A stretch of 64,000 bases of DNA from a bacterium (GTDB lineage Bacteria; UBA8248). How positions within the stretch are numbered: the first letter of the stretch is position 1; the number at the start of each line of letters is the position of its first letter. The stretch spans positions 2,528,001-2,592,000 of the forward strand of contig CBDBEV010000001.1 of NCBI GenBank assembly GCA_965204535.1. Reading direction: 5' to 3'. The notes below the pieces were generated by a model. The model was not told the origin of the DNA. It searched no databases and saw nothing but the letters and a program-made list of their open reading frames with translations. This document shows, piece after piece, positions 33,393-49,181 of the stretch. The translations under genes were made by a program, and so were the position numbers.

Positions 33393-33806
33393 ATGCTCAT
33401 CGTGAACGAGAGGCTCAAAATCCCGCTGCGCGAAATCCACTTCCAGTTCGCGCGCGCGGGCGGCCCCGGCGGGCAGAACGTCAACAAGGTCTCGACCAAG
33501 GCGGTGCTGCGCTGGAACATGGCGGCGTCTTCGAGCGCGCCCGAGGACGTGAAGGCGAGGCTCAGGACGCTCCACCCGCGCCGCGTGACGCGGGAGGGCG
33601 AGGTCGTCATCGCGAGCAGCCGCTTTCGCGATCAGGGCCGGAACGTCGCCGACTGCCTCGAAAAGCTCCGCGCCGCCCTGGCCGCCGCCGCCGACCCGCC
33701 CAAGCCGCGCCGCCCCACGCGCCCCACCCGCGCATCGGCCGAGAAGCGCTTGAAGGACAAGCGCCAACGCAGCGAGAAGAAGAGGATGAGGGGGAAGGTA
33801 GGGTAG
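33393..33806 (+). CDS. arfB: Alternative ribosome rescue peptidyl-tRNA hydrolase ArfB (YaeJ)
   Basis: GGPGGQNVNK motif and basic C-terminal tail (PRRPTRPT...KKRMR). Confidence 0.93.
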   Translation: MLIVNERLKIPLREIHFQFARAGGPGGQNVNKVSTKAVLRWNMAASSSAPEDVKARLRTLHPRRVTREGEVVIASSRFRDQGRNVADCLEKLRAALAAAADPPKPRRPTRPTRASAEKRLKDKRQRSEKKRMRGKVG

Positions 33807-33892
33807 GGGGGAGCTTTTTCTCTTGATTGGTTCGACCCTCAACAGATAGACTTCCGCAACATTCAGGCTCGTGTTGATTTGCATTTGCTTCT

Positions 33893-33916
33893 GTAGGGGA
33901 CGCTCGTGAACGGCCC
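33893..33916 (+). repeat. Single GTAG-REP (degenerate)
   Basis: GTAGGGGACGCTCGTGAACGGCCC, the inverted counterpart of 37049-37072. Confidence 0.65.
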
Positions 33917-33951
33917 GCATTGGATGAGGATTTTTGGAATTGAGGTGATTC

Positions 33952-35175
33952 ATGCAAGACCGAATTGATGAAGGAGTTCGAAATAACATCCGTCGTCGAG
34001 ATATTCTCCCGCAAGACAAACTTCCACCTGAACTCACTAAATGGCGTCGGCGCTTTCTCCGTATTGCCCGAATCGTGATGTTTCTAGCAATTTTATACAT
34101 CGTTATTATTTGTATTCAAATTATTTGGTTTCCAGATTCGGTTCCTGAATGTATTTGTTGGCCTTACCTTGCGTTAGCGGGATTTTTATCGGGGTTGGTT
34201 TCTGATTTCTTCATTCGACATTGGGTGCGTGTCCATGAATCTCGAAAAGAAGATCGAAGCGAGATTGAAGCACTAATCCAGGAAGCGAAAAACATTCAAC
34301 CAAGATTACTTGAACCAGAGAGGCCCGCGGGATTCGAAGTCAAGCATCAGCAGGTGCAGAAAGAGGTAGAACGGCTTACAGAAGAAGTGGGTCTCGAAGG
34401 ATGGACAGAGTTTCAGGTCCTCATCTTAGACCGCATGTTGATTGATTTCCTGCCGCTAGAGGACCTTAAAGCACGCGCACGATCTAGCCTGGATGAGCTT
34501 AGGGAATATGCATATGGAGAGGCATTTTCTTACAATGATAACTTTTATCGTAATTGGGAAGACAAAATTAACACCAACATAAACGACCTAGAGGAACTAG
34601 ACAAAGAAGTTGGTGAGGATGATGATCGTGCACAAAAAATAGATGATAAAGCTGAGGCCTTGCGTGCAAATCTTAGAGCGGTACGTGAACATGTAGCTGA
34701 ATATCGAGCCAAATGGGCAGAAGGCTCAACTATAGTTTGGGGCATCATATTTTGTGGATTAGCTTCAGTAGTTGTTTTCACTTTAATGGGAATTCTTCCC
34801 CTATTTTATCCAATACAGGATTGTTCCCCTTTATGTAACTATCGTTTGGGCATCCTTAACTGGGGGTTTCTAGGGATAGCGGGAGCAATAGCCATTGCAC
34901 TGCTTGATCTTCGCAACGCCAAGGAAGTTGAAGTTGCTGATACGGCTGGAAAGCAAGAACTATCGAGAGTATTGTTAAGTGCCCCACTTGGTCTTCTAGC
35001 TGGTGTTTTAGTTTTTTCAATTATTGCAGGGGAACTCATCAATAGTGGCTCTGCAGTTCCTAATTTGAGGAAATCTGAATTTAAGGATGCTTACCTTTCT
35101 ATCGCATGGGCGGTAGTTGCAGGTATGGGATTTGAAGGTGTATTTCAGCGTGTACGTCGTGCTGTGGAGTCCTAA
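33952..35175 (+). CDS. Hypothetical multi-pass membrane protein (2 N-terminal and about 4 C-terminal TM helices, helical soluble linker)
   Basis: 407-aa ORF in visibly AT-richer DNA; GAGGTG RBS; clear hydrophobic segments. Confidence 0.8.
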   Translation: MQDRIDEGVRNNIRRRDILPQDKLPPELTKWRRRFLRIARIVMFLAILYIVIICIQIIWFPDSVPECICWPYLALAGFLSGLVSDFFIRHWVRVHESRKEDRSEIEALIQEAKNIQPRLLEPERPAGFEVKHQQVQKEVERLTEEVGLEGWTEFQVLILDRMLIDFLPLEDLKARARSSLDELREYAYGEAFSYNDNFYRNWEDKINTNINDLEELDKEVGEDDDRAQKIDDKAEALRANLRAVREHVAEYRAKWAEGSTIVWGIIFCGLASVVVFTLMGILPLFYPIQDCSPLCNYRLGILNWGFLGIAGAIAIALLDLRNAKEVEVADTAGKQELSRVLLSAPLGLLAGVLVFSIIAGELINSGSAVPNLRKSEFKDAYLSIAWAVVAGMGFEGVFQRVRRAVES

Positions 35176-35256
35176 ATGAATCTAGTGCCGAGTAGCCCGG
35201 TTACGCATAGGACCCATAATGCTGTAGACGGGAGTGTAGAAAGGGCGGATAGCAGC

Positions 35257-35640
35257 ATGTCCGATCGACGAGCATATGGTTTTGAACTTATCCTTGACCT
35301 GCACGGATGTAAAACCGAGTTGTTCAACCGCGACTACATCGACAATTTTTTCTCCGATCTTTGCGAACTGATCGAAATGGAAAAGTGTGAAGTGCACTTC
35401 TGGGACGATGTAGGTGTTCCTGAGGAGCAGCAGCAGACGCTACCGCACACCAAAGGCACATCAGCCGTCTGTTTCATTTTGACGAGTACAATTGTCATTC
35501 ATACGCTGGATATTCTCGGCGCTGTTTACGTGAACATTTTTTCCTGCAAGCCCTTTGAACCAGACGTCGCGGCGGAATTTACGAGCAAACGCTTTAGGGC
35601 GGTAACCTTCAAAAAGACATTTATTGAACGCACATTGTGA
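35257..35640 (+). CDS. Pyruvoyl-dependent S-adenosylmethionine decarboxylase-like proenzyme (divergent)
   Basis: YGxELILDLHGC, GTSAVCFILTSTIVIHT, VYVNIFSCKPF match the SpeD/AdoMetDC class 1B pattern. ATG 35176 is an alternative start. Confidence 0.78.
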   Translation: MSDRRAYGFELILDLHGCKTELFNRDYIDNFFSDLCELIEMEKCEVHFWDDVGVPEEQQQTLPHTKGTSAVCFILTSTIVIHTLDILGAVYVNIFSCKPFEPDVAAEFTSKRFRAVTFKKTFIERTL

Positions 35641-35662
35641 TAAGTAGTGTAAGGAGAATGAA

Positions 35663-37033
35663 TTGCTTTTGAGAGAGTTGGAACTTGAACTGCCAATAGC
35701 ACTTGATAGGCAAAATGCGCTTTCACAAATTCGAGAAGCCGCACGTTTTCGGTTAACTGCTAATACCGCACCTCTCAGATTCGCGATTACGAAGTCAAAT
35801 GGTGGCCATGTCAGTTGTGCGATCAGCAGCTTAGAAACGTCGTCTGAATTAAACGAACTATCAGATATCTCCATATTCGATTTTGCACCGCGCAAGCATG
35901 AGAACACGAACCAGTTTAATGTCGCATTTTTGATTCCAACGGGTATAGGTGCCGAAATTGGTGGCCACGCGGGTGATGCGACGCCGACCGCAAGGCTGAT
36001 TGCCGAGACCTGCGATACATTGATTTTGCATCCCAACGTGGTCAACGCATCCGATATAAACGAGATGCTGGCAAATTCTCTATATGTCGAAGGTAGCGTA
36101 ATCGCTCGGTTGTTGATGGGCACTGTCGGTCTCGTTGCAACACGAGCCAACCGAGTGCTGGTCATTATTGATGCCCACAAAGACGATCTGTTCGTGAACG
36201 CCGCCATTAACGCAGTGAGTGCGGCGCGCTCATCCTACGGCTTGGTTTGTCCCGAAGTGATTAAACTTTCACCGCCACTGAAGATGAGGTCCGAGTTTAC
36301 CGAATTTGGTACCGCCGCTGGCGAAATCCGTGGTCTTGAACGGGTCTTTGCGGTGCTCGAAGAGCAAGAAGGGGAATACGATGCGGTGGCTATTTCCTCA
36401 GTAATCTCGGTTCCCGAGGAGTTCCACCAAGGATACTTCAATGCCGCAGGAGAAATGGTGAATCCTTGGGGCGGTGTGGAAGCTATGCTCACTCATGCCG
36501 TATCAAGTCGATTCAATATGCCCTCGGCCCATTCGCCGATGTTCGAAACCCAAGATATAGCGAATCGGGATCCAGGCGTGGTGGATCCGCGCATGGCAGC
36601 GGAAGCAATTTCCCTTACATTTTTCGAGAGTGTTTTGAAGGGGCTTCACAAAAGCCCAAGGATCGTTACCGATTCATCTCAGATGTCAGAGCCCGGCGTC
36701 ATATCGGCGGCTGACGTTTCGTGTTTGGTGATTCCTGATGGTTGCATTGGCTTGCCAACTCTCGCTGCGTTGGATCAGGGCATCAAGGTAATAGCCGTGC
36801 GAGAAAATAAGAACCTGATGGAAAATGATCTGACCATGCTTCCCTGGCGCTCCGACCAACTCCACATCGTCGAGAATTATTGGGAAGCGGCAGGCCTGCT
36901 CTGCGCGATTCGTGGCGGGATTGCTCCTGAGTCCGTTCGGCGGCCACTCAGTCACACTCGGGTCACGACACGGGAGTTTAACGAAACGGAGAGTGAACAG
37001 CTTCCAACGGAGAGGGCAAAGCATTTCGGCTAA
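35663..37033 (+). CDS. DUF3326 domain protein with N-terminal extension
   Basis: IPTGIGAEIGGHAGDA, LHPNVVNAS, NPWGGVEAMLTH, VDPRMAAEAIS, NYWEAAG. AAGGAG RBS before TTG. Confidence 0.82.
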   Translation: MLLRELELELPIALDRQNALSQIREAARFRLTANTAPLRFAITKSNGGHVSCAISSLETSSELNELSDISIFDFAPRKHENTNQFNVAFLIPTGIGAEIGGHAGDATPTARLIAETCDTLILHPNVVNASDINEMLANSLYVEGSVIARLLMGTVGLVATRANRVLVIIDAHKDDLFVNAAINAVSAARSSYGLVCPEVIKLSPPLKMRSEFTEFGTAAGEIRGLERVFAVLEEQEGEYDAVAISSVISVPEEFHQGYFNAAGEMVNPWGGVEAMLTHAVSSRFNMPSAHSPMFETQDIANRDPGVVDPRMAAEAISLTFFESVLKGLHKSPRIVTDSSQMSEPGVISAADVSCLVIPDGCIGLPTLAALDQGIKVIAVRENKNLMENDLTMLPWRSDQLHIVENYWEAAGLLCAIRGGIAPESVRRPLSHTRVTTREFNETESEQLPTERAKHFG

Positions 37034-37048
37034 ACAAATAAATCATCT

Positions 37049-37072
37049 GGGCCGCTCGCGAGCGGCCCCTAC
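37049..37072 (-). repeat. GTAG-REP
   Basis: GGGCCGCTCGCGAGCGGCCCCTAC. Same-orientation copy at 37304-37327; half copies at 37571-37586 and 39605-39620. Confidence 0.8.
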
Positions 37073-37221
37073 AGGTTGTCCAACCCCTCTCGCACCTGCT
37101 CCCCCGGCCTCTCGCTCGCGGCTTTCAGGAAATCCTCATCGACCGGGCGCTTGATGGCGTCAAGCCAGGCCCAATCATCTGGTTTCGGTTCGGGGGCGTC
37201 TTTCTCTTTTTCGGCTTCCAT
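37069..37221 (-). CDS. Small protein resembling the C-terminal half of a VapB/VagC antitoxin
   Basis: EPKPDDWAWLDAIKRPVDEDFLKAASERPGEQVR resembles VapB C-terminal regions. No AbrB-like N-terminal domain and no adjacent vapC. Confidence 0.55.
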   Translation of the reverse strand: MEAEKEKDAPEPKPDDWAWLDAIKRPVDEDFLKAASERPGEQVREGLDNL

Positions 37222-37348
37222 GTTCTTGCCTTCTATGTAAAGCGGCTTTCGATATGCTGAAGGGATACATCGCATGGATGGCCGGATGAATCAACAGGGC
37301 TGTGGGCCGCTCACGAGCGGCCCCTACGGAACCGGCGAGTTGCGGAAT

Positions 37349-37511
37349 CACTCCCCCCTTGAGGGGGAGTCGAAGGGGCCGAGCGTTTTTTGCGAAGGCC
37401 GATTCGGTGGGGGGTAAATCGCGTTTTTCGCCCACTCCGAATTATACCCCCCACCGGTTCGCTTGCGGGCTTGCGCCCTTACCTCACCGACTCCCCCTCA
37501 AGGGGGGAGTG
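37349..37511. repeat. Palindromic repeat family B
   Basis: CACTCCCCCCTTGAGGGGGAGTCG...CGACTCCCCCTCAAGGGGGGAGTG with internal GGTGGGGGG/CCCCCCACC arms. Confidence 0.9.
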
Positions 37512-37623
37512 ATTCTTGCACTTTCATTGGTCGCGTTAAACCCCCGTTCATTAGGATTTTTAAACAACCCCGCGAGCGGCCCCTACAACAGCACCTCCCC
37601 TATGTAACATTCCTCCCCAACCC

Positions 37624-37808
37624 TGAATAACGCACCCCCTTATTCAACTTATCCCCCATAAAGCTGAATAGCCTGCTCCACAAGCCATTTTCACCCCGCC
37701 TCTCCCGCTTCCCCATCCCCGTTATTCATTTTTACGAATGAACACTTAATAGCATTTCCTTTTATTCAGTTTTATGCTATATCTCTTAATAGTGATTCGG
37801 CTTATTCA
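37624..37808 (+). promoter_or_regulatory. Periodic 7-9-7 inverted-repeat array upstream of fic (putative operator array)
   Basis: T(G/T)AATA(A/G)-N9-TTATTCA. Left halves at 37624, 37665, 37746, 37786; right halves at 37640, 37722, 37762, 37802. Confidence 0.7.
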
Positions 37809-37844
37809 GCTTTCGCTTCATAACGCTTCATCAGGAGGTTCGCG

Positions 37845-39005
37845 GTGAGACGCGCAGAGACGGGCGCATACGAGACGACGACGTTCGGCGGCGAGGCCGT
37901 GCGCGCGTTCGTGCCCGCCCGCCTGCCGCCCAGGCCGCCGCTCGATCTGGCGGCCCTGAACGAGGAACTCGAGCGGGCGTCGCTCTCGCTGGGCCGCCTC
38001 GACAGCCTGGCCGCGCTTCTGCCCGACCCCCACGTCTTCCTCTACACCTACGTGCGAAAGGAGGCCGTGCTCTCCTCCCAGATCGAGGGTACGCAGTCCT
38101 CGCTCTCCGATCTGCTCATGTTCGAGGTGGAGGGGGCGCCGGGCGCGCCGGTTGACGACGTGGTCGAGGTATCGAACTACGTGGCGGCGCTCGAACACGG
38201 CTTAGCAAGGATGCGGGGGGATGATTTCCCGCTCTCGGCGCGCCTCATCTGCGAGATCCACGGCCGGCTGCTCGCGCGGGGCCGCGGCGCGGGCAAGAGC
38301 CCGGGCGAGTTCCGGCGCTCCCAGAACTGGATCGGCGGGAGCAGGCCGGGCGCGGCGCACTTCGTGCCCCCGCCGCCCCACCGGGTCGGCGAGTGCATGT
38401 CGGACCTGGAGCGCTTCTGGCACGCGGAGGACCTGAGGCTGTCGGCCTTGCTCCGCGCGGGTCTCGCGCACGTCCAGTTCGAGACCATCCACCCGTTCCT
38501 GGACGGGAACGGGCGCGTCGGGCGGCTGCTCATCACGCTCCTGCTCTGGCGCGAGGGCGCGCTCCGGGAGCCGATGCTGTACCTGAGCCTCTTCTTCAAG
38601 CAGCGCCGGGCGGATTACTACGCGCTCCTGGACGAGGTGCGCAAGAGCGGCGACTGGGAGGCGTGGCTCCTCTTCTTCCTGGAAGGCGTGGCCGAGACTT
38701 CCGATGCGGCCGTGGCGGCCGCGCACCGGGTGCTGGCGCTGTTCGATGCGGATCAGCTCCGGGCCGCGCAGACGGGCCGCGTGGCCGGTTCGGCGCTCCG
38801 CGTCTACCGGGCGCTCAAGGAGCGGCCCATCGCCTCGCTCGCACACGCGGTCGAGCATTCGGGCCTCTCGTTCCCGGCGGCGTCGAGCGGGATGCGGGCG
38901 CTCGAGCGGCTGGGGATCGTCCGCGAGCTCACGGGCAAGAGGCGCAACCGCCTGTTCGGCTACGAGGCGTACCTCTCGATCCTGAACGAGGGAACGGAGG
39001 TTTAA
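37845..39005 (+). CDS. Fic family protein (class II, N-terminal inhibitory motif, C-terminal winged HTH)
   Basis: Catalytic HPFLDGNGRVGR; inhibitory SSQIEG; AGGAGG RBS. Confidence 0.92.
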   Translation: MRRAETGAYETTTFGGEAVRAFVPARLPPRPPLDLAALNEELERASLSLGRLDSLAALLPDPHVFLYTYVRKEAVLSSQIEGTQSSLSDLLMFEVEGAPGAPVDDVVEVSNYVAALEHGLARMRGDDFPLSARLICEIHGRLLARGRGAGKSPGEFRRSQNWIGGSRPGAAHFVPPPPHRVGECMSDLERFWHAEDLRLSALLRAGLAHVQFETIHPFLDGNGRVGRLLITLLLWREGALREPMLYLSLFFKQRRADYYALLDEVRKSGDWEAWLLFFLEGVAETSDAAVAAAHRVLALFDADQLRAAQTGRVAGSALRVYRALKERPIASLAHAVEHSGLSFPAASSGMRALERLGIVRELTGKRRNRLFGYEAYLSILNEGTEV

Positions 39006-40975: not shown

Positions 40976-42493
40976 AGGGCCTGTTGAAAAACCCCTGGTT
41001 TTGTGATCGTATGGATGTATTCCCCCTCGCCCGAGATGGGAGTTCCGGAGATGTTGGACCGCAAGAGGCGCGAGCAGATGGACTTGTTCGTGGCCGGCCC
41101 GCTGGAGAAGTTGATTCCCGAAGATCACATATTGCGCCAGGTGGACCGCGTACTGGATTTGAGTTGGCTTCGCGAGGAAGTGGCGGAGTGCTATTGCGCG
41201 GACAACGGTCGACCGGGGATCGACCCGGAAGTGGTGATCCGGTTGATGCTGGCGGGCCTGCTGCTGGGCTACGCGGAGGATCGCCGCCTGCTGCGCGAGG
41301 CGCAGGCGCATCTGGCGGTCCGGTGGTTCATCGGGTACAGGCTGGACGAGGATTTGCCGGATCATTCGAGCCTGACGCGTATCCGTCAACGCTGGGGGGA
41401 GGAGCGGTTCAAGGAGATATTTCGGCGCACGGTTCAGTCTTGCGTGGAGGCGAAGGTGGCGAAGGGAGAGGTGGTTCACATGGACGCGTCTTTGATACGC
41501 GCGGACGTGAGCTGGGAGAGTCTGGCGGAGCGCCACGCGGAGAAGGTGGTGCGGGAGAACGACTCGGAGGATGAGACGGGGAAGAAGGGCGGCGGCGGGG
41601 GTTCGGGTCCGGTGAGCCGAACGGACCCCGACGCGCGCCTGGCGCGCAAGAGCGCTCGGGCGGGGTTCGAGCCGAGCTATAAGCACCACGCGGTGGTGGA
41701 CGACGAGCGTGGGGTGGTTCTCGACGTAGAGGTGACGGAGGGGACGTTGAACGAGCGGGAGATGATGGAGCCGCAGTTGGATGCGGTTTGCGAGCTCACG
41801 GGTCGCGCGCCCGCGGTGGTGACGGCGGATAGTGGCTATGCGTATTCGAAGGTGTACGGCGCATTGGAGCGTCGGGGGGTCGCCGCGCTGATACCGGCGA
41901 AGAAGGAACCCACCCAGAGCCGGGTGCCGCTGCAACTGTTCCGCTACGACGAGCGGAATGAGGTGGTGAAGTGTCCGGGTGGCAAGACGCTGCGCCCCCG
42001 GAAGGAGACGGAGCGGGGGCGCTGGTATGTATCGAGGACCCGCGATTGCGCGGGGTGCGCGCTCAAGGCCGATTGTCTGTCGGCGTCTCGCACGAGCAGG
42101 GCGGTTCTGATTCCGCACGAGTATCCGGCGCTGTTGCGCGCGCGCCGTCGCCACGCGCGCCGTGGGGAGGAGGAGGGCCGGCTGTGGCGGCGCCACATGG
42201 GTCGCTCGGAGGGCTATCACGGCGAGGCGAAGAGTCGGCACGGACTGGCGCGGGCGGTACGCCGGGGTCTTGCGAACGTGAAGATCCAGGCCTACCTGAC
42301 GGCGACTGCGGTGAACCTCAAGCGGCTCGCCGCCGCTGTGGCCGCGGGTTTATTCGCTCTGTGGCGGGCCTGGGCCGCCCGGAAACGCCGAATGAGCGCA
42401 TATCGCGGCCTCACGCGCCGATTGGGCTTCCTCTCCCAGGCCGCGTGAGCCGCCATACATCCCGCTTCAAAACGGGGTTTTTCAACAGCCCCC
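40976..42493 (+). mobile_element. IS1182-family insertion sequence
   Basis: Terminal IRs AGGGCCTGTTGAAAAACCCC and GGGGTTTTTCAACAGCCCCC (18/20 match); flanking duplication TCAA (or CTCAA). Confidence 0.88.
41051..42448 (+). CDS. IS1182-family DDE transposase
   Basis: N-terminal DUF772-like region (IPEDH, GRPGIDP, PDHSSL); DDE candidates MDAS, ADSGY, SEG; C-terminal AVNLKRL. Confidence 0.9.
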   Translation: MLDRKRREQMDLFVAGPLEKLIPEDHILRQVDRVLDLSWLREEVAECYCADNGRPGIDPEVVIRLMLAGLLLGYAEDRRLLREAQAHLAVRWFIGYRLDEDLPDHSSLTRIRQRWGEERFKEIFRRTVQSCVEAKVAKGEVVHMDASLIRADVSWESLAERHAEKVVRENDSEDETGKKGGGGGSGPVSRTDPDARLARKSARAGFEPSYKHHAVVDDERGVVLDVEVTEGTLNEREMMEPQLDAVCELTGRAPAVVTADSGYAYSKVYGALERRGVAALIPAKKEPTQSRVPLQLFRYDERNEVVKCPGGKTLRPRKETERGRWYVSRTRDCAGCALKADCLSASRTSRAVLIPHEYPALLRARRRHARRGEEEGRLWRRHMGRSEGYHGEAKSRHGLARAVRRGLANVKIQAYLTATAVNLKRLAAAVAAGLFALWRAWAARKRRMSAYRGLTRRLGFLSQAA

Positions 42494-45090: not shown

Positions 45091-45360
45091 TTACTCGAAT
45101 AAATCCGAATGCGTACCCGTACGGATGAGAGTGACCGAGTCCTCGTCCTCCTCCCAGATGAGGAGCCAGTCTGGTTCTACATGACATTCTTGGCAGGGTG
45201 ACCATTCACCGGACAAGCGATGAGGTCTGTTTTGTGGATCGAGCGATTCGCCAGCGAGTAACTTATCGACGATGCGATTGAGTTTTTCGACGTTCTTGCC
45301 GCGTCTGCGGGTTCTTCTGAGATCTCTTTTGAACTGCGTAGTCGCGCGGAGTTCACGCAT
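45091..45360 (-). CDS. yafQ: Type II toxin, YafQ family mRNA interferase
   Basis: TTQFKRD, H-x-L-S-G, ECHVEPDWLLI, RTGTHSDLF. Confidence 0.9.
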   Translation of the reverse strand: MRELRATTQFKRDLRRTRRRGKNVEKLNRIVDKLLAGESLDPQNRPHRLSGEWSPCQECHVEPDWLLIWEEDEDSVTLIRTGTHSDLFE

Positions 45361-45634
45361 CGTCGAGTTCGGCGATCAACTCCTCGACGCCGCCGTATGT
45401 ACTCAATCCTTCCCCGGCGCGCGCCTGCCGAATGGCTTCGCGGGTCTCCTCGTTGGGAATCTGCTGCGGCGGCAGACCGTGATGCGTGGCGAGCAATTCA
45501 TAGAACAAGGGCATTGCCTTATAAAACAAGGTGATCGCTTCGGTCGGCGAGAGACCGAGTGCAGAGAATATTTTTTCGGCTTCTTGCTTTAACTCAGTAT
45601 CCATTGGCGTGCGTATGATTTCCGTGTCGGCCAT
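45353..45634 (-). CDS. dinJ: Type II antitoxin, RelB/DinJ family
   Basis: ELKQEAEKIFSALGLSPTEAI, GLP, IPNEET. Overlaps the toxin start; AGGAGG RBS. Confidence 0.85.
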   Translation of the reverse strand: MADTEIIRTPMDTELKQEAEKIFSALGLSPTEAITLFYKAMPLFYELLATHHGLPPQQIPNEETREAIRQARAGEGLSTYGGVEELIAELDDA

Positions 45635-45700
45635 GGTGCGCCTCCTTTTCTTAAAAATAATCGCAATCCCGGAGCAGGTCAACATGCCTCCAACTCCACA

Positions 45701-47684: not shown

Positions 47685-49181
47685 ATGCGAGTTCAGCCGC
47701 TTGAAATCGAGGTGCCCGAAGACGATCCGTTCAAGAATGATCTGCTCGGGCGTCGTGAGACGGTGCAGGTGCTTACCAGCATCGTCGGTTCCATCGAGGG
47801 GCCGTGTGTTTTGTCGGTCGATGCTGCATGGGGGGCGGGGAAAACCACGTTCCTTAAGATGTGGGCGCAACACCTGCGAAACGAGGATTTCCCCGTCGTC
47901 GAGTTCAATGCTTGGGAGACGGACTTCTCCGAGGAGCCTTTCATCGCTCTTTCCACCGAATTGACGGAAGGCCTTAAAGAGTACGCTAATGGATCGATGT
48001 CGGGAAAGATCGACAATATAAAAGGGAAGGCAAAGGAGGTTGCTCGATCACTCATTCCGGGAATCATTAAGGCTGCCGCCGCTGGCATTCCGTTAGTTGG
48101 AGGTGAATTGGGCCTAGCACTCGCTTCCTTGGCTGAAGAAAAGGTGAATGTATACGAGGAAGCACGGGAATCGATCAAATCGTTTCGTTCTACTCTGCAA
48201 GACATGGCTAACACTTTGTCGAAATCAAAGGATGGTCGCCCGCTGGTCGTGGTGATTGATGAGCTGGACAGATGCCGCCCTTCTTACGCCGTCGAGCTTC
48301 TTGAAGTCGCCAAACACATTTTCGCCGTCGATCATGTTGTATTCGTGCTTGGAGTCAACCGCTCCCAGCTCGCGCATTCTGTGAAGGCGCTTTACGGGGA
48401 TGAGTTTGACGCCTTGGGTTATCTGGGCCGTTTCTTCGATTTGGACTTCCGGCTTCCTGAACCCGGCAGGGTAGAGTTTATTAACGCGATGCTCCAGGAG
48501 GCAGGAATTAACGATTGCCTAGAGCGACCGCAAGAACGACATAGATCAATAGAAATGGAAAAAGAAACGGAAGTAGCCCGAAACTTTTTGCAGGCGTTCT
48601 TTGTCACGCCAGACTTAAGCCTTCGCCAGATCGGGCAGGCCATCCACCGACTGGGGCTGGTATTCGCGTCGTTGCGCGAAGAGCAACCGTTGTTCGCCAG
48701 AATGACGATCGTGATGTTTATTCTTCGGGTGCTCGACTTCGAGCTTTATCAACAGTTTGTCGGTGGTGAGGTTTCCGACCTTGAAGTTGCTGATGCAGTG
48801 TTTAATCTGCCAAGAATTAAGGAACTTCGAGGGACAGATTTAGGCGATCAGTTTGAAGCCACGCTCATTGTGGCAATTCATGAAAAGGCCTCACCTGAAA
48901 TTAAGAGTCAGATGGACAATTCAGAAATCTTGCGTGAGTTGGATAACAAGGGCAAACCCAGCCGCCATGATGAAATGCGTAAACTGGCTTATTACATACT
49001 GTTGGAAAATGAAAAGTTGTATGGCACTAACATGATTGCATTCAAAGAATCGATTCAACGGATTGAATTGCTCTCAACCATTCTTCCGGAAGATGTACAA
49101 TCGCATCTTAAATACAAAGCAATTCTGAATCAAACTTTTGGATTGGTGGATGCTCAAGCCTCCCTCAAGGACACTCCCTGA
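47685..49181 (+). CDS. KAP family P-loop NTPase
   Basis: DAAWGAGKT Walker A, FNAW, VVVIDELDRCRP, LGRFFD. Confidence 0.88.
   Translation: MRVQPLEIEVPEDDPFKNDLLGRRETVQVLTSIVGSIEGPCVLSVDAAWGAGKTTFLKMWAQHLRNEDFPVVEFNAWETDFSEEPFIALSTELTEGLKEYANGSMSGKIDNIKGKAKEVARSLIPGIIKAAAAGIPLVGGELGLALASLAEEKVNVYEEARESIKSFRSTLQDMANTLSKSKDGRPLVVVIDELDRCRPSYAVELLEVAKHIFAVDHVVFVLGVNRSQLAHSVKALYGDEFDALGYLGRFFDLDFRLPEPGRVEFINAMLQEAGINDCLERPQERHRSIEMEKETEVARNFLQAFFVTPDLSLRQIGQAIHRLGLVFASLREEQPLFARMTIVMFILRVLDFELYQQFVGGEVSDLEVADAVFNLPRIKELRGTDLGDQFEATLIVAIHEKASPEIKSQMDNSEILRELDNKGKPSRHDEMRKLAYYILLENEKLYGTNMIAFKESIQRIELLSTILPEDVQSHLKYKAILNQTFGLVDAQASLKDTP

Follow-up and report, generated by a model that had tools for sequence, protein, structure and literature searches.

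This analysis concerns a 64,000-nucleotide stretch of a bacterial genome (the window; contig CBDBEV010000001.1, forward-strand positions 2,528,001 to 2,592,000) and, within it, three + strand open reading frames (ORFs) at window positions 33952-37033, here called the cassette. ORF1 encodes a membrane protein, ORF2 a SpeD-like decarboxylase and ORF3 a protein of the DUF3326 family. Comparison with related loci shows that the fixed, conserved unit is decarboxylase plus DUF3326, with three unrelated decarboxylase folds exchanged within it. It also shows that the cassette is an insertion at a genus-variable site 3′ of arfB, and that this site is a defence hotspot. We give about an even chance to a broader reading, in which a mobile, amine-making cassette in a defence hotspot would carry a membrane effector controlled by the amine. 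The features of the locus are these:

33393..33806, + strand: arfB, a host gene with an RF-1 domain
33823..33852, + strand: promoter-like motif of 30 bp, TTGA..18 nt..TAGACT, common to the upstream regions of other cassettes and of defence genes
33891..33916, + strand: hairpin resembling a repetitive extragenic palindrome (REP) in the cassette leader; a genome-wide repeat, not cassette-specific
33952..35175, + strand: ORF1, membrane protein of 407 aa, unnamed family, occupant of a variable slot (hydropathy, predicted model)
35176..35640, + strand: ORF2, SpeD-fold decarboxylase of 154 aa, predicted to be pyruvoyl-dependent (PF02675; S104, H109, C124)
35663..37033, + strand: ORF3, DUF3326 long form of 456 aa, predicted condensing enzyme (PF11805 at 4.5e-90)
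37050..37074, − strand: REP-like hairpin directly after the cassette, inverted relative to the one in the leader (pattern match)
37845..39005, + strand: Fic protein (Pfam), whose gene directly follows arfB in a relative, marking the empty site

The cassette and its insertion site

The ORF2 start directly abuts the ORF1 stop, and ORF3, with a TTG start behind AAGGAG, follows ORF2 after a gap of 22 nucleotides (nt). The G+C content of the cassette, 0.475, lies below the genome mean (0.605 ± 0.048); among 4559 windows of the same length across the genome, 1.3% are equally low. At third codon positions the G+C content of its genes is 0.34, 0.54 and 0.53, in order, versus 0.91-0.94 in three adjacent genes. 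A foreign origin is supported. Against four other copies, dN/dS is 0.20-0.31 for the membrane gene, 0.14-0.20 for the SpeD-like gene and 0.10-0.14 for DUF3326, and all three genes are under purifying selection. A first-pass annotation of this DNA had described co-oriented, tightly spaced genes in unusually AT-rich DNA right after arfB, with neither a spermidine synthase nor an integrase nearby. Coordinates, composition and the preceding RF-1-domain gene all agree with that description; the host's own speD-speE pair lies ~410 kb away, and a Pfam scan of a subset of the flanking ORFs gave no integrase.

The site itself is variable. Twenty arfB loci from 17 same-genus genomes carry differing cargo downstream, none of them carries the cassette there, and in L277 fic directly follows arfB. 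The cassette is therefore an insertion. Low G+C content and same-genus sites without the cassette are what we found, and not the core, syntenic, host-like operon that had been named beforehand as evidence against a foreign module. DUF3326 is present in 3 of 22 other same-genus genomes and in 7 of 51 in the phylum. A second cassette copy in the same genome, on contig C1, has 58%, 79% and 92% protein identity to ORF1, ORF2 and ORF3, respectively, and lies behind an arfB fragment, between type I restriction-modification (R-M) genes and PtuAB. The three-gene stretch also aligns at 76-80% nt identity to L002 (a record titled Nitrospirales), to L003 and L004 (two copies in one genome) and to L005 (titled Ca. 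Entotheonella). In L007, from a record titled Ca. Marinacidobacterales, the alignment covers DUF3326 only, at 79%. Plasmid and cultured-phage collections yielded no DUF3326.

The cargo of relatives identifies the site as a defence hotspot. We scanned the next genes at 11 of the 20 arfB loci, counting PADLOC matches at E ≤ 1e-12, and found a match at 10: type II restriction endonuclease (three loci), Dsr1 (two), QatC, PDC-S37/Hhe, HEC-02, type IIG R-M and a weak, Schlafen-type match. The next genes in L275 gave none. By sequence, two of the other nine loci resemble the Schlafen-type gene, two lead directly into fic or ppk2, and the remainder are host-like, short or cut off. Across the genus, the 3′ side of arfB (window 33806-37845; L263-L282) holds R-M, Dsr1, QatC, HEC-02, helicase and Schlafen-type genes; the occupants in L275 and L280 and the second ORF of L267 are candidate new defence genes.

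The 30-bp motif recurs in these settings. It also precedes the cassette in L002, L003, L004 and L012. Outside the cassette it stands before Dsr1-like genes (L265, L273) and before type IIG R-M genes (L274; L286, at C1:537390), and in L269 it lies at a contig end. Thus, at all four non-cassette motif sites with a readable next gene, that gene is Dsr1 or type IIG R-M. Three of the PADLOC-matched same-genus arfB loci sit behind the motif. We infer a promoter role for it; a consensus promoter and terminator scan performed at chance level and did not call it. Elsewhere, a SIR2 gene neighbours L002 and a type I HsdR gene neighbours L283.

The first-pass annotation had also argued for a defence neighbourhood, citing nearby Fic, toxin-antitoxin and KAP genes. 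The neighbourhood holds, on the strength of relatives' cargo at the same arfB site. The cited genes exist but are weak evidence, since fic is present at the empty site too and the others (a YafQ/RelB toxin-antitoxin pair at 45094-45685 and an AT-rich KAP NTPase gene at 47685-49178) lie 8-12 kb away. The window further contains an insertion-sequence DDE transposase at 41003-42448 and another REP-like GTAG hairpin at 37305-37329. The inverted REP-like pair around the cassette was considered as element ends and ruled out because the repeat occurs genome-wide, with 94 matches to a generic pattern.

The conserved core and its exchangeable partners

We surveyed 96 cellular DUF3326 loci, namely 16 genome loci (the window included, duplicates dropped) and the best 80 of 564 metagenome matches, a set that includes near-duplicates, together with all 65 viral matches. 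Within 1.5 kb of DUF3326, 60 of the 96 cellular loci have a SpeD-like gene and 30 an NspC-like pyridoxal phosphate (PLP) enzyme; none has both. Four of the remaining six run into a contig end within 1 kb, and two (L007, L085) have room. Among the viral loci, a SpeD-like gene lies within 1.5 kb in 48 and at 1.8 kb in 2 more, nine have a partner resembling phosphatidylserine decarboxylase (PSD), three have an ornithine-cyclodeaminase-family gene and three have none. Several of these viral cores adjoin portal, terminase or capsid genes. In a phylogeny built from 158 DUF3326 sequences, decarboxylase type changes 10 times, against at least 30 in shuffles. The partners cluster by lineage yet have been swapped repeatedly, and we leave the direction of the swaps unassigned. 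The reverse link is looser: among 80 viral SpeD-like loci, found with a query alignment built from linked genes, DUF3326 lies within 6 kb in 52 and is absent in 19 that have at least 2.5 kb of flank; 9 are short.

The NspC-like partner is much nearer to solved carboxynorspermidine decarboxylases (4e-76) than to diaminopimelate decarboxylases (4e-12), and scores 282-293, below the TIGR01047 cut-off of 409. In four NspC-type genomes we found neither a Sacchrp_dh_C match over cut-off nor another nspC-like gene, and DHS was absent from all four; HSS was not searchable as a family of its own. A CASDH-type domain passed the PF16653 cut-off in none of five genomes, although controls matched, and the cassette has none. 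DUF3326 as the host's only triamine route is ruled out both here, where speD-speE is present, and for three of the four NspC-type genomes, which have a spermidine-synthase match.

Several loci depart from the simple pair. The PSD-like partners, soluble and with a conserved GSQ motif, occur in large AT-rich viral contigs (L105, L110, L111, L115, L121-L123, L139 and L149); L139 also has an arginase-family gene near DUF3326, and L110 a separate AdoMetDC. In L106, L135 and L163 the gene immediately upstream of DUF3326 is of the ornithine cyclodeaminase/mu-crystallin kind, and no decarboxylase was found. At L007:7037-9188 a CAP12/Pycsar TIR gene directly precedes a 5′-truncated DUF3326 gene, the decarboxylase having been lost, near insertion-sequence remnants. 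In the Dehalococcoidia records L008-L011, at host-like G+C content, the genes after the core encode an uncharacterised protein of 500 aa, a TrkA-domain K+ channel and a SecA paralogue, and L064:3924-7377 is a tandem PtuA-PtuB-DUF3326-SpeD-like-DUF3326 array with two DUF3326 genes.

The membrane gene behaves differently from the core. The first-pass annotation had proposed a linkage conserved across distant taxa, which proved true of decarboxylase plus DUF3326 and not of the membrane gene, present in 16 of the 96 cellular loci (14 with a SpeD-like and 2 with an NspC-like partner). The same slot holds PtuA and/or PtuB in 16 loci (a spurious L085 row dropped; L012 has both), a ~620-aa protein with HD-like motifs recognised by eye (no Pfam match) in 4 and a cyclase in 2. 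Slot labels change 14 times over 63 labelled tips of the DUF3326 tree, against at least 29 times in shuffles. In three loci checked, PtuA/PtuB lies 14-22 nt from the SpeD-like start. All eight membrane-gene copies from a whole-genome search precede the core, and two are broken beside an intact core (L003 frameshifted, L284 internally deleted). Neither the membrane gene nor PtuAB was found at any of the 65 viral loci.

Longer arrangements also recur. At L033:2783-7365, L039:1487-7353, L054:1511-7347 and L085:146-3510 lies an operon of LPG_synthase_C (GNAT-like; in L039, L054 and L085), an MfnB-like 4-(hydroxymethyl)-2-furancarboxaldehyde-phosphate (4-HFC-P) synthase, PtuA, PtuB, SpeD-like and DUF3326 genes, the L085 version being without the middle three. 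This operon may point to a more complex small molecule with a link to Septu. L084:3407-4780 and L092:3413-4786 combine an MFS transporter, a circularly permuted ATP-grasp-like protein (weak Pfam match), an NspC-like enzyme and DUF3326, possibly a cluster for amine-conjugate biosynthesis and export.

The three proteins

ORF2 matches Pfam AdoMet_dc (PF02675) at 6.4e-16. Its S104, H109 and C124 align to the processing residues S63, H68 and C83 of T. maritima AdoMetDC, and this Ser/His/Cys set is invariant in the SpeD-like partners (56 of 56 cellular, 47 of 47 viral). It scores 28.7 bits, below the TIGR03330 cut-off of 75.65. E62, W70, P71 and E72 of the T. maritima enzyme align to T, L, D and I; P71, which aligns to D112, is probably the Pro that Li et al. 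2023 describe as conserved in bona fide AdoMetDCs. At inferred positions, ORF2 keeps the Thr (Thr103) and Tyr (Tyr118) that mark SpeDC, has Cys99 where its family has Gln, and has no Phe after His109. The SpeDC-type Gln itself occurs in 38 of 56 cellular and 46 of 47 viral SpeD-like partners. ORF2 is thus predicted to be a pyruvoyl-dependent enzyme of a subfamily near the SpeDC ornithine decarboxylases. As far as the available text of Li et al. 2023 (PMC10407285) goes, it shares with SpeDC/SpeDA the SpeD fold, the Ser/His/Cys residues, the probable Thr and Tyr marks, the Gln in most family members and the lack of an adjacent SpeE; it differs in its apparent Cys for Gln, the apparently missing diagnostic Phe, a WDD acidic insertion, and coupling to DUF3326 instead of HSS, SpeY or SpeE.

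ORF3 matches no Pfam family other than DUF3326. It is a long form with an additional ~85-aa N-terminal domain and a glycine-rich motif at residues 92-105, and 57 positions are at least 95% conserved among 158 homologues. In its predicted model (pLDDT 81.2), the middle domain weakly resembles lumazine synthase (Z 9.5-10.0, root-mean-square deviation ~4 Å over 132-134 residues). There was no Foldseek match at E ≤ 0.001 in PDB or BFVD, a sequence search of PDB was empty, and a structure-atlas search with a DUF3326 homologue gave no usable match outside PF11805. HSS, DHS and CASDH are not among the listed fold matches, which cover residues ~130-350 only and barely probe the split N/C domain. By sequence family, ORF3 has no match to HSS/DHS-type triamine synthases, and PF01916 is absent from the host genome.

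ORF1 has two N-terminal hydrophobic helices, a soluble helical bundle (residues ~90-255) and four C-terminal helices, three of which pass the hydropathy cut; its model has pLDDT 80.7. It gave no Pfam or NCBIfam match over cut-off, and its fold search returned no significant match, only generic helical bundles (best Z 11.3). We found 98 homologues, and 215 representatives at 50% identity. A structure-atlas search with a homologue reached unnamed clusters only (801, 327 and 67 members), and a cluster look-up of 10 homologues gave no names. Indirectly, 34 of the 98 appear to share a source assembly with one of the top 120 DUF3326 matches. The membrane gene was not found in 401 genomes of the phylum of G059, 401 of that of G065 or 300 further ones of that of G062. 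A complex prediction of DUF3326 with the membrane protein scored 0.00, which counts neither for nor against.

An amine product and what it may control

The precedent for the core comes from the pavettamine cluster pavABC of Burkholderia s.l., described in a 2026 preprint (bioRxiv 10.64898/2026.06.12.731819). There PavB, the only genetically studied DUF3326 that we found, works with PavA, which is annotated with a carboxynorspermidine decarboxylase part. According to the available text of the preprint, both are required for N-(5-aminopentyl)pentane-1,5-diamine, a C5-C5 triamine, whereas every strain contained cadaverine. The first-pass annotation had seen in this locus a possible first clue to what DUF3326 does, but such a clue thus already exists; its proposal of small-molecule synthesis gains from this precedent and from the core linkage. 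Since PavB builds a triamine with an NspC-like partner, polyamine synthesis by the core is likely, and by this analogy we regard an amine product as quite probable. Plain spermidine is an improbable product, given that speD-speE is already present in the host. Because PavA is needed for the triamine despite cadaverine in all strains, the decarboxylase may act on the product of DUF3326, and by analogy we lean slightly toward an order in which DUF3326 acts first and the decarboxylase second. For a short cyanobacterial gene context of fed3, DUF650 and DUF3326, the accessible part of PMC4284462 describes no decarboxylase; the amine inference may therefore not span the whole family.

It is useful to contrast the cassette with known systems. 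Like pavABC, it sets a DUF3326 gene beside a decarboxylase gene and has spread horizontally; the resemblance to PavB is one of family and description. Its enzyme has a pyruvoyl SpeD fold where pavABC has an NspC-like domain using PLP. The cassette also contains an extra gene, that of the membrane protein, and lies at a defence site. The Rieske (PavA fusion) and JmjC (PavC) domains given in the available text of the preprint are absent from the three ORFs and the scanned flanks; thus nothing suggests pavettamine as the product. The condense-then-decarboxylate logic, as inferred, is that of the CASDH/CASDC pathway, and 30 of the 96 relatives use an NspC-like enzyme; DUF3326 would take the place of the missing CASDH-type domain. 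In part of PMC9992855, hss and gss genes adjoin in clusters and yjf-type operons; similarly, 14 of the 96 cellular loci have a gene of the glutathionylspermidine (GSP) synthase family beside the core, although the window copy has no ligase and its synthase would be DUF3326.

CBASS, Pycsar and retron-PtuAB systems pair a signal synthase or enzymatic core with a variable effector. The survey loci likewise combine a fixed core with one slot whose occupant can be exchanged (membrane protein, nuclease or hydrolase), in defence islands, and PtuAB is among the occupants. Their core differs in having neither nucleotide cyclase nor reverse transcriptase, in its predicted amine product and in matching no PADLOC model. 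In the open-access literature, PavAB aside, we did not find this module described, nor any link of a polyamine decarboxylase and effector to anti-phage defence, or of Septu/PtuA to polyamine.

In the mechanism we propose, DUF3326 would condense a diamine with a basic amino acid to form a carboxy-polyamine, and the self-cleaving SpeD-like enzyme would remove the carboxyl to leave a triamine. The membrane protein would be an anti-phage effector under control of the amine. In the guard version, constant product would silence the membrane protein and depletion during infection would release it. From the sequence and its setting, a defence role for the three-gene form seems to us evenly balanced; that the amine controls the membrane protein, in the simplest case as a guard, is a tentative proposal by analogy. 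The pattern of slot use, with broken membrane genes beside intact cores, fits a toxic effector silenced by the core product; it also fits a dispensable exporter.

With the same amine-making core, the membrane protein might serve for export or anchoring, and the cassette might be a trait for stress or symbiosis that merely shares insertion hotspots with defence genes. ORF1 is polytopic, the same slot is taken elsewhere by MFS transporters, by ATP-grasp ligases and by GSP synthase together with PspA, and PavAB makes a specialised metabolite in plant symbionts, on the preprint's available account. However, no transporter family or fold was matched by ORF1, the slot is without a transporter at most loci, the HD-like protein and nucleases occupy it operon-tight, and the membrane gene is lost or broken where the core is kept; we consider this alternative rather unlikely. 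A passive form of defence, in which the amine itself accumulates and hinders phage DNA replication while slot genes are independent passengers, would draw on the inhibition of phage genome replication by high intracellular polyamines in P. aeruginosa (reported in the accessible part of PMC9992862) and on two-gene cores with no recognised partner. Phages nevertheless carry the same core beside structural and packaging genes, so its product is unlikely to be generally anti-phage, and each of the eight membrane genes from the whole-genome search came together with the core. This makes it an improbable account.

Two further alternatives concern the chemistry. The SpeD-like enzyme could be an ornithine or lysine decarboxylase that makes a diamine, with DUF3326 as a third, non-homologous enzyme of homospermidine-synthase type joining two diamines. 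The Gln, Thr and Tyr marks of the family, the viral SpeD-like loci without DUF3326 and the arginase-family gene in L139 all suit this order, as does a SpeD homologue with ornithine decarboxylase activity that clusters with HSS in the available part of PMC10407285. Against it stand the Cys for Gln and missing Phe of ORF2, the exchange of the SpeD-like for an NspC-like enzyme, and the abolition of triamine by pavA loss despite host cadaverine, as the preprint's available text has it; we judge it rather unlikely. Finally, a spare spermidine pathway, with a true AdoMetDC hitch-hiking among unrelated genes, is suggested by the PF02675 match and contradicted by the missed TIGR03330 cut-off, by the four T. 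maritima substitutions and by the lack of a spermidine synthase among annotated neighbours of a cassette whose host has its own speD-speE; it is very improbable indeed.

Our preferred reading, the amine-controlled effector in a defence hotspot, must also be set against several observations. Amine synthesis, effector role and anti-phage action rest on sequence, context and analogy for all three proteins. None of the three matches PADLOC 2.0 (no match below E 0.03); the membrane-gene loci L284, L061, L079, L051 and L060 gave no PADLOC match in the one or two neighbours scanned for each, and the neighbours of L003, L004 and L005 missed a 1e-25 PADLOC cut. The SpeDC marks of the SpeD-like family and the 19 viral loci without DUF3326 fit a simple amino-acid decarboxylase acting first, and the modelled DUF3326 fold points to no mechanism. 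The slot also holds non-defence genes (in addition to GSP synthase, an unknown 500-aa protein, c6, in 8 loci and glutamine-synthetase-like and MFS genes in 4 each), and an MFS or ligase partner fits export or conjugation. PtuA copies are mostly 30-46% identical between loci, so that islands may have brought them beside the core repeatedly.

The reading nevertheless suggests, tentatively, a polyamine-gated anti-phage class. In such systems DUF3326 and a convergently recruited decarboxylase, from three unrelated folds, would make an unusual triamine controlling swappable effectors (the membrane protein, PtuAB, the HD-like hydrolase). Phages would carry the bare core as their own source of the amine, so that the effector stays silent. 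At the least, our findings point to a widespread, undescribed triamine route in uncultured bacteria and phages. This two-gene, hydroxylase-free system is suited to working out the DUF3326 reaction directly, and the route would add new activities to two pyruvoyl folds, the SpeD-like and the PSD-like. If effectors are indeed gated by the amine, polyamines would rank beside nucleotides among dedicated immune signals, and the core carried by phages would become a candidate counter-defence.

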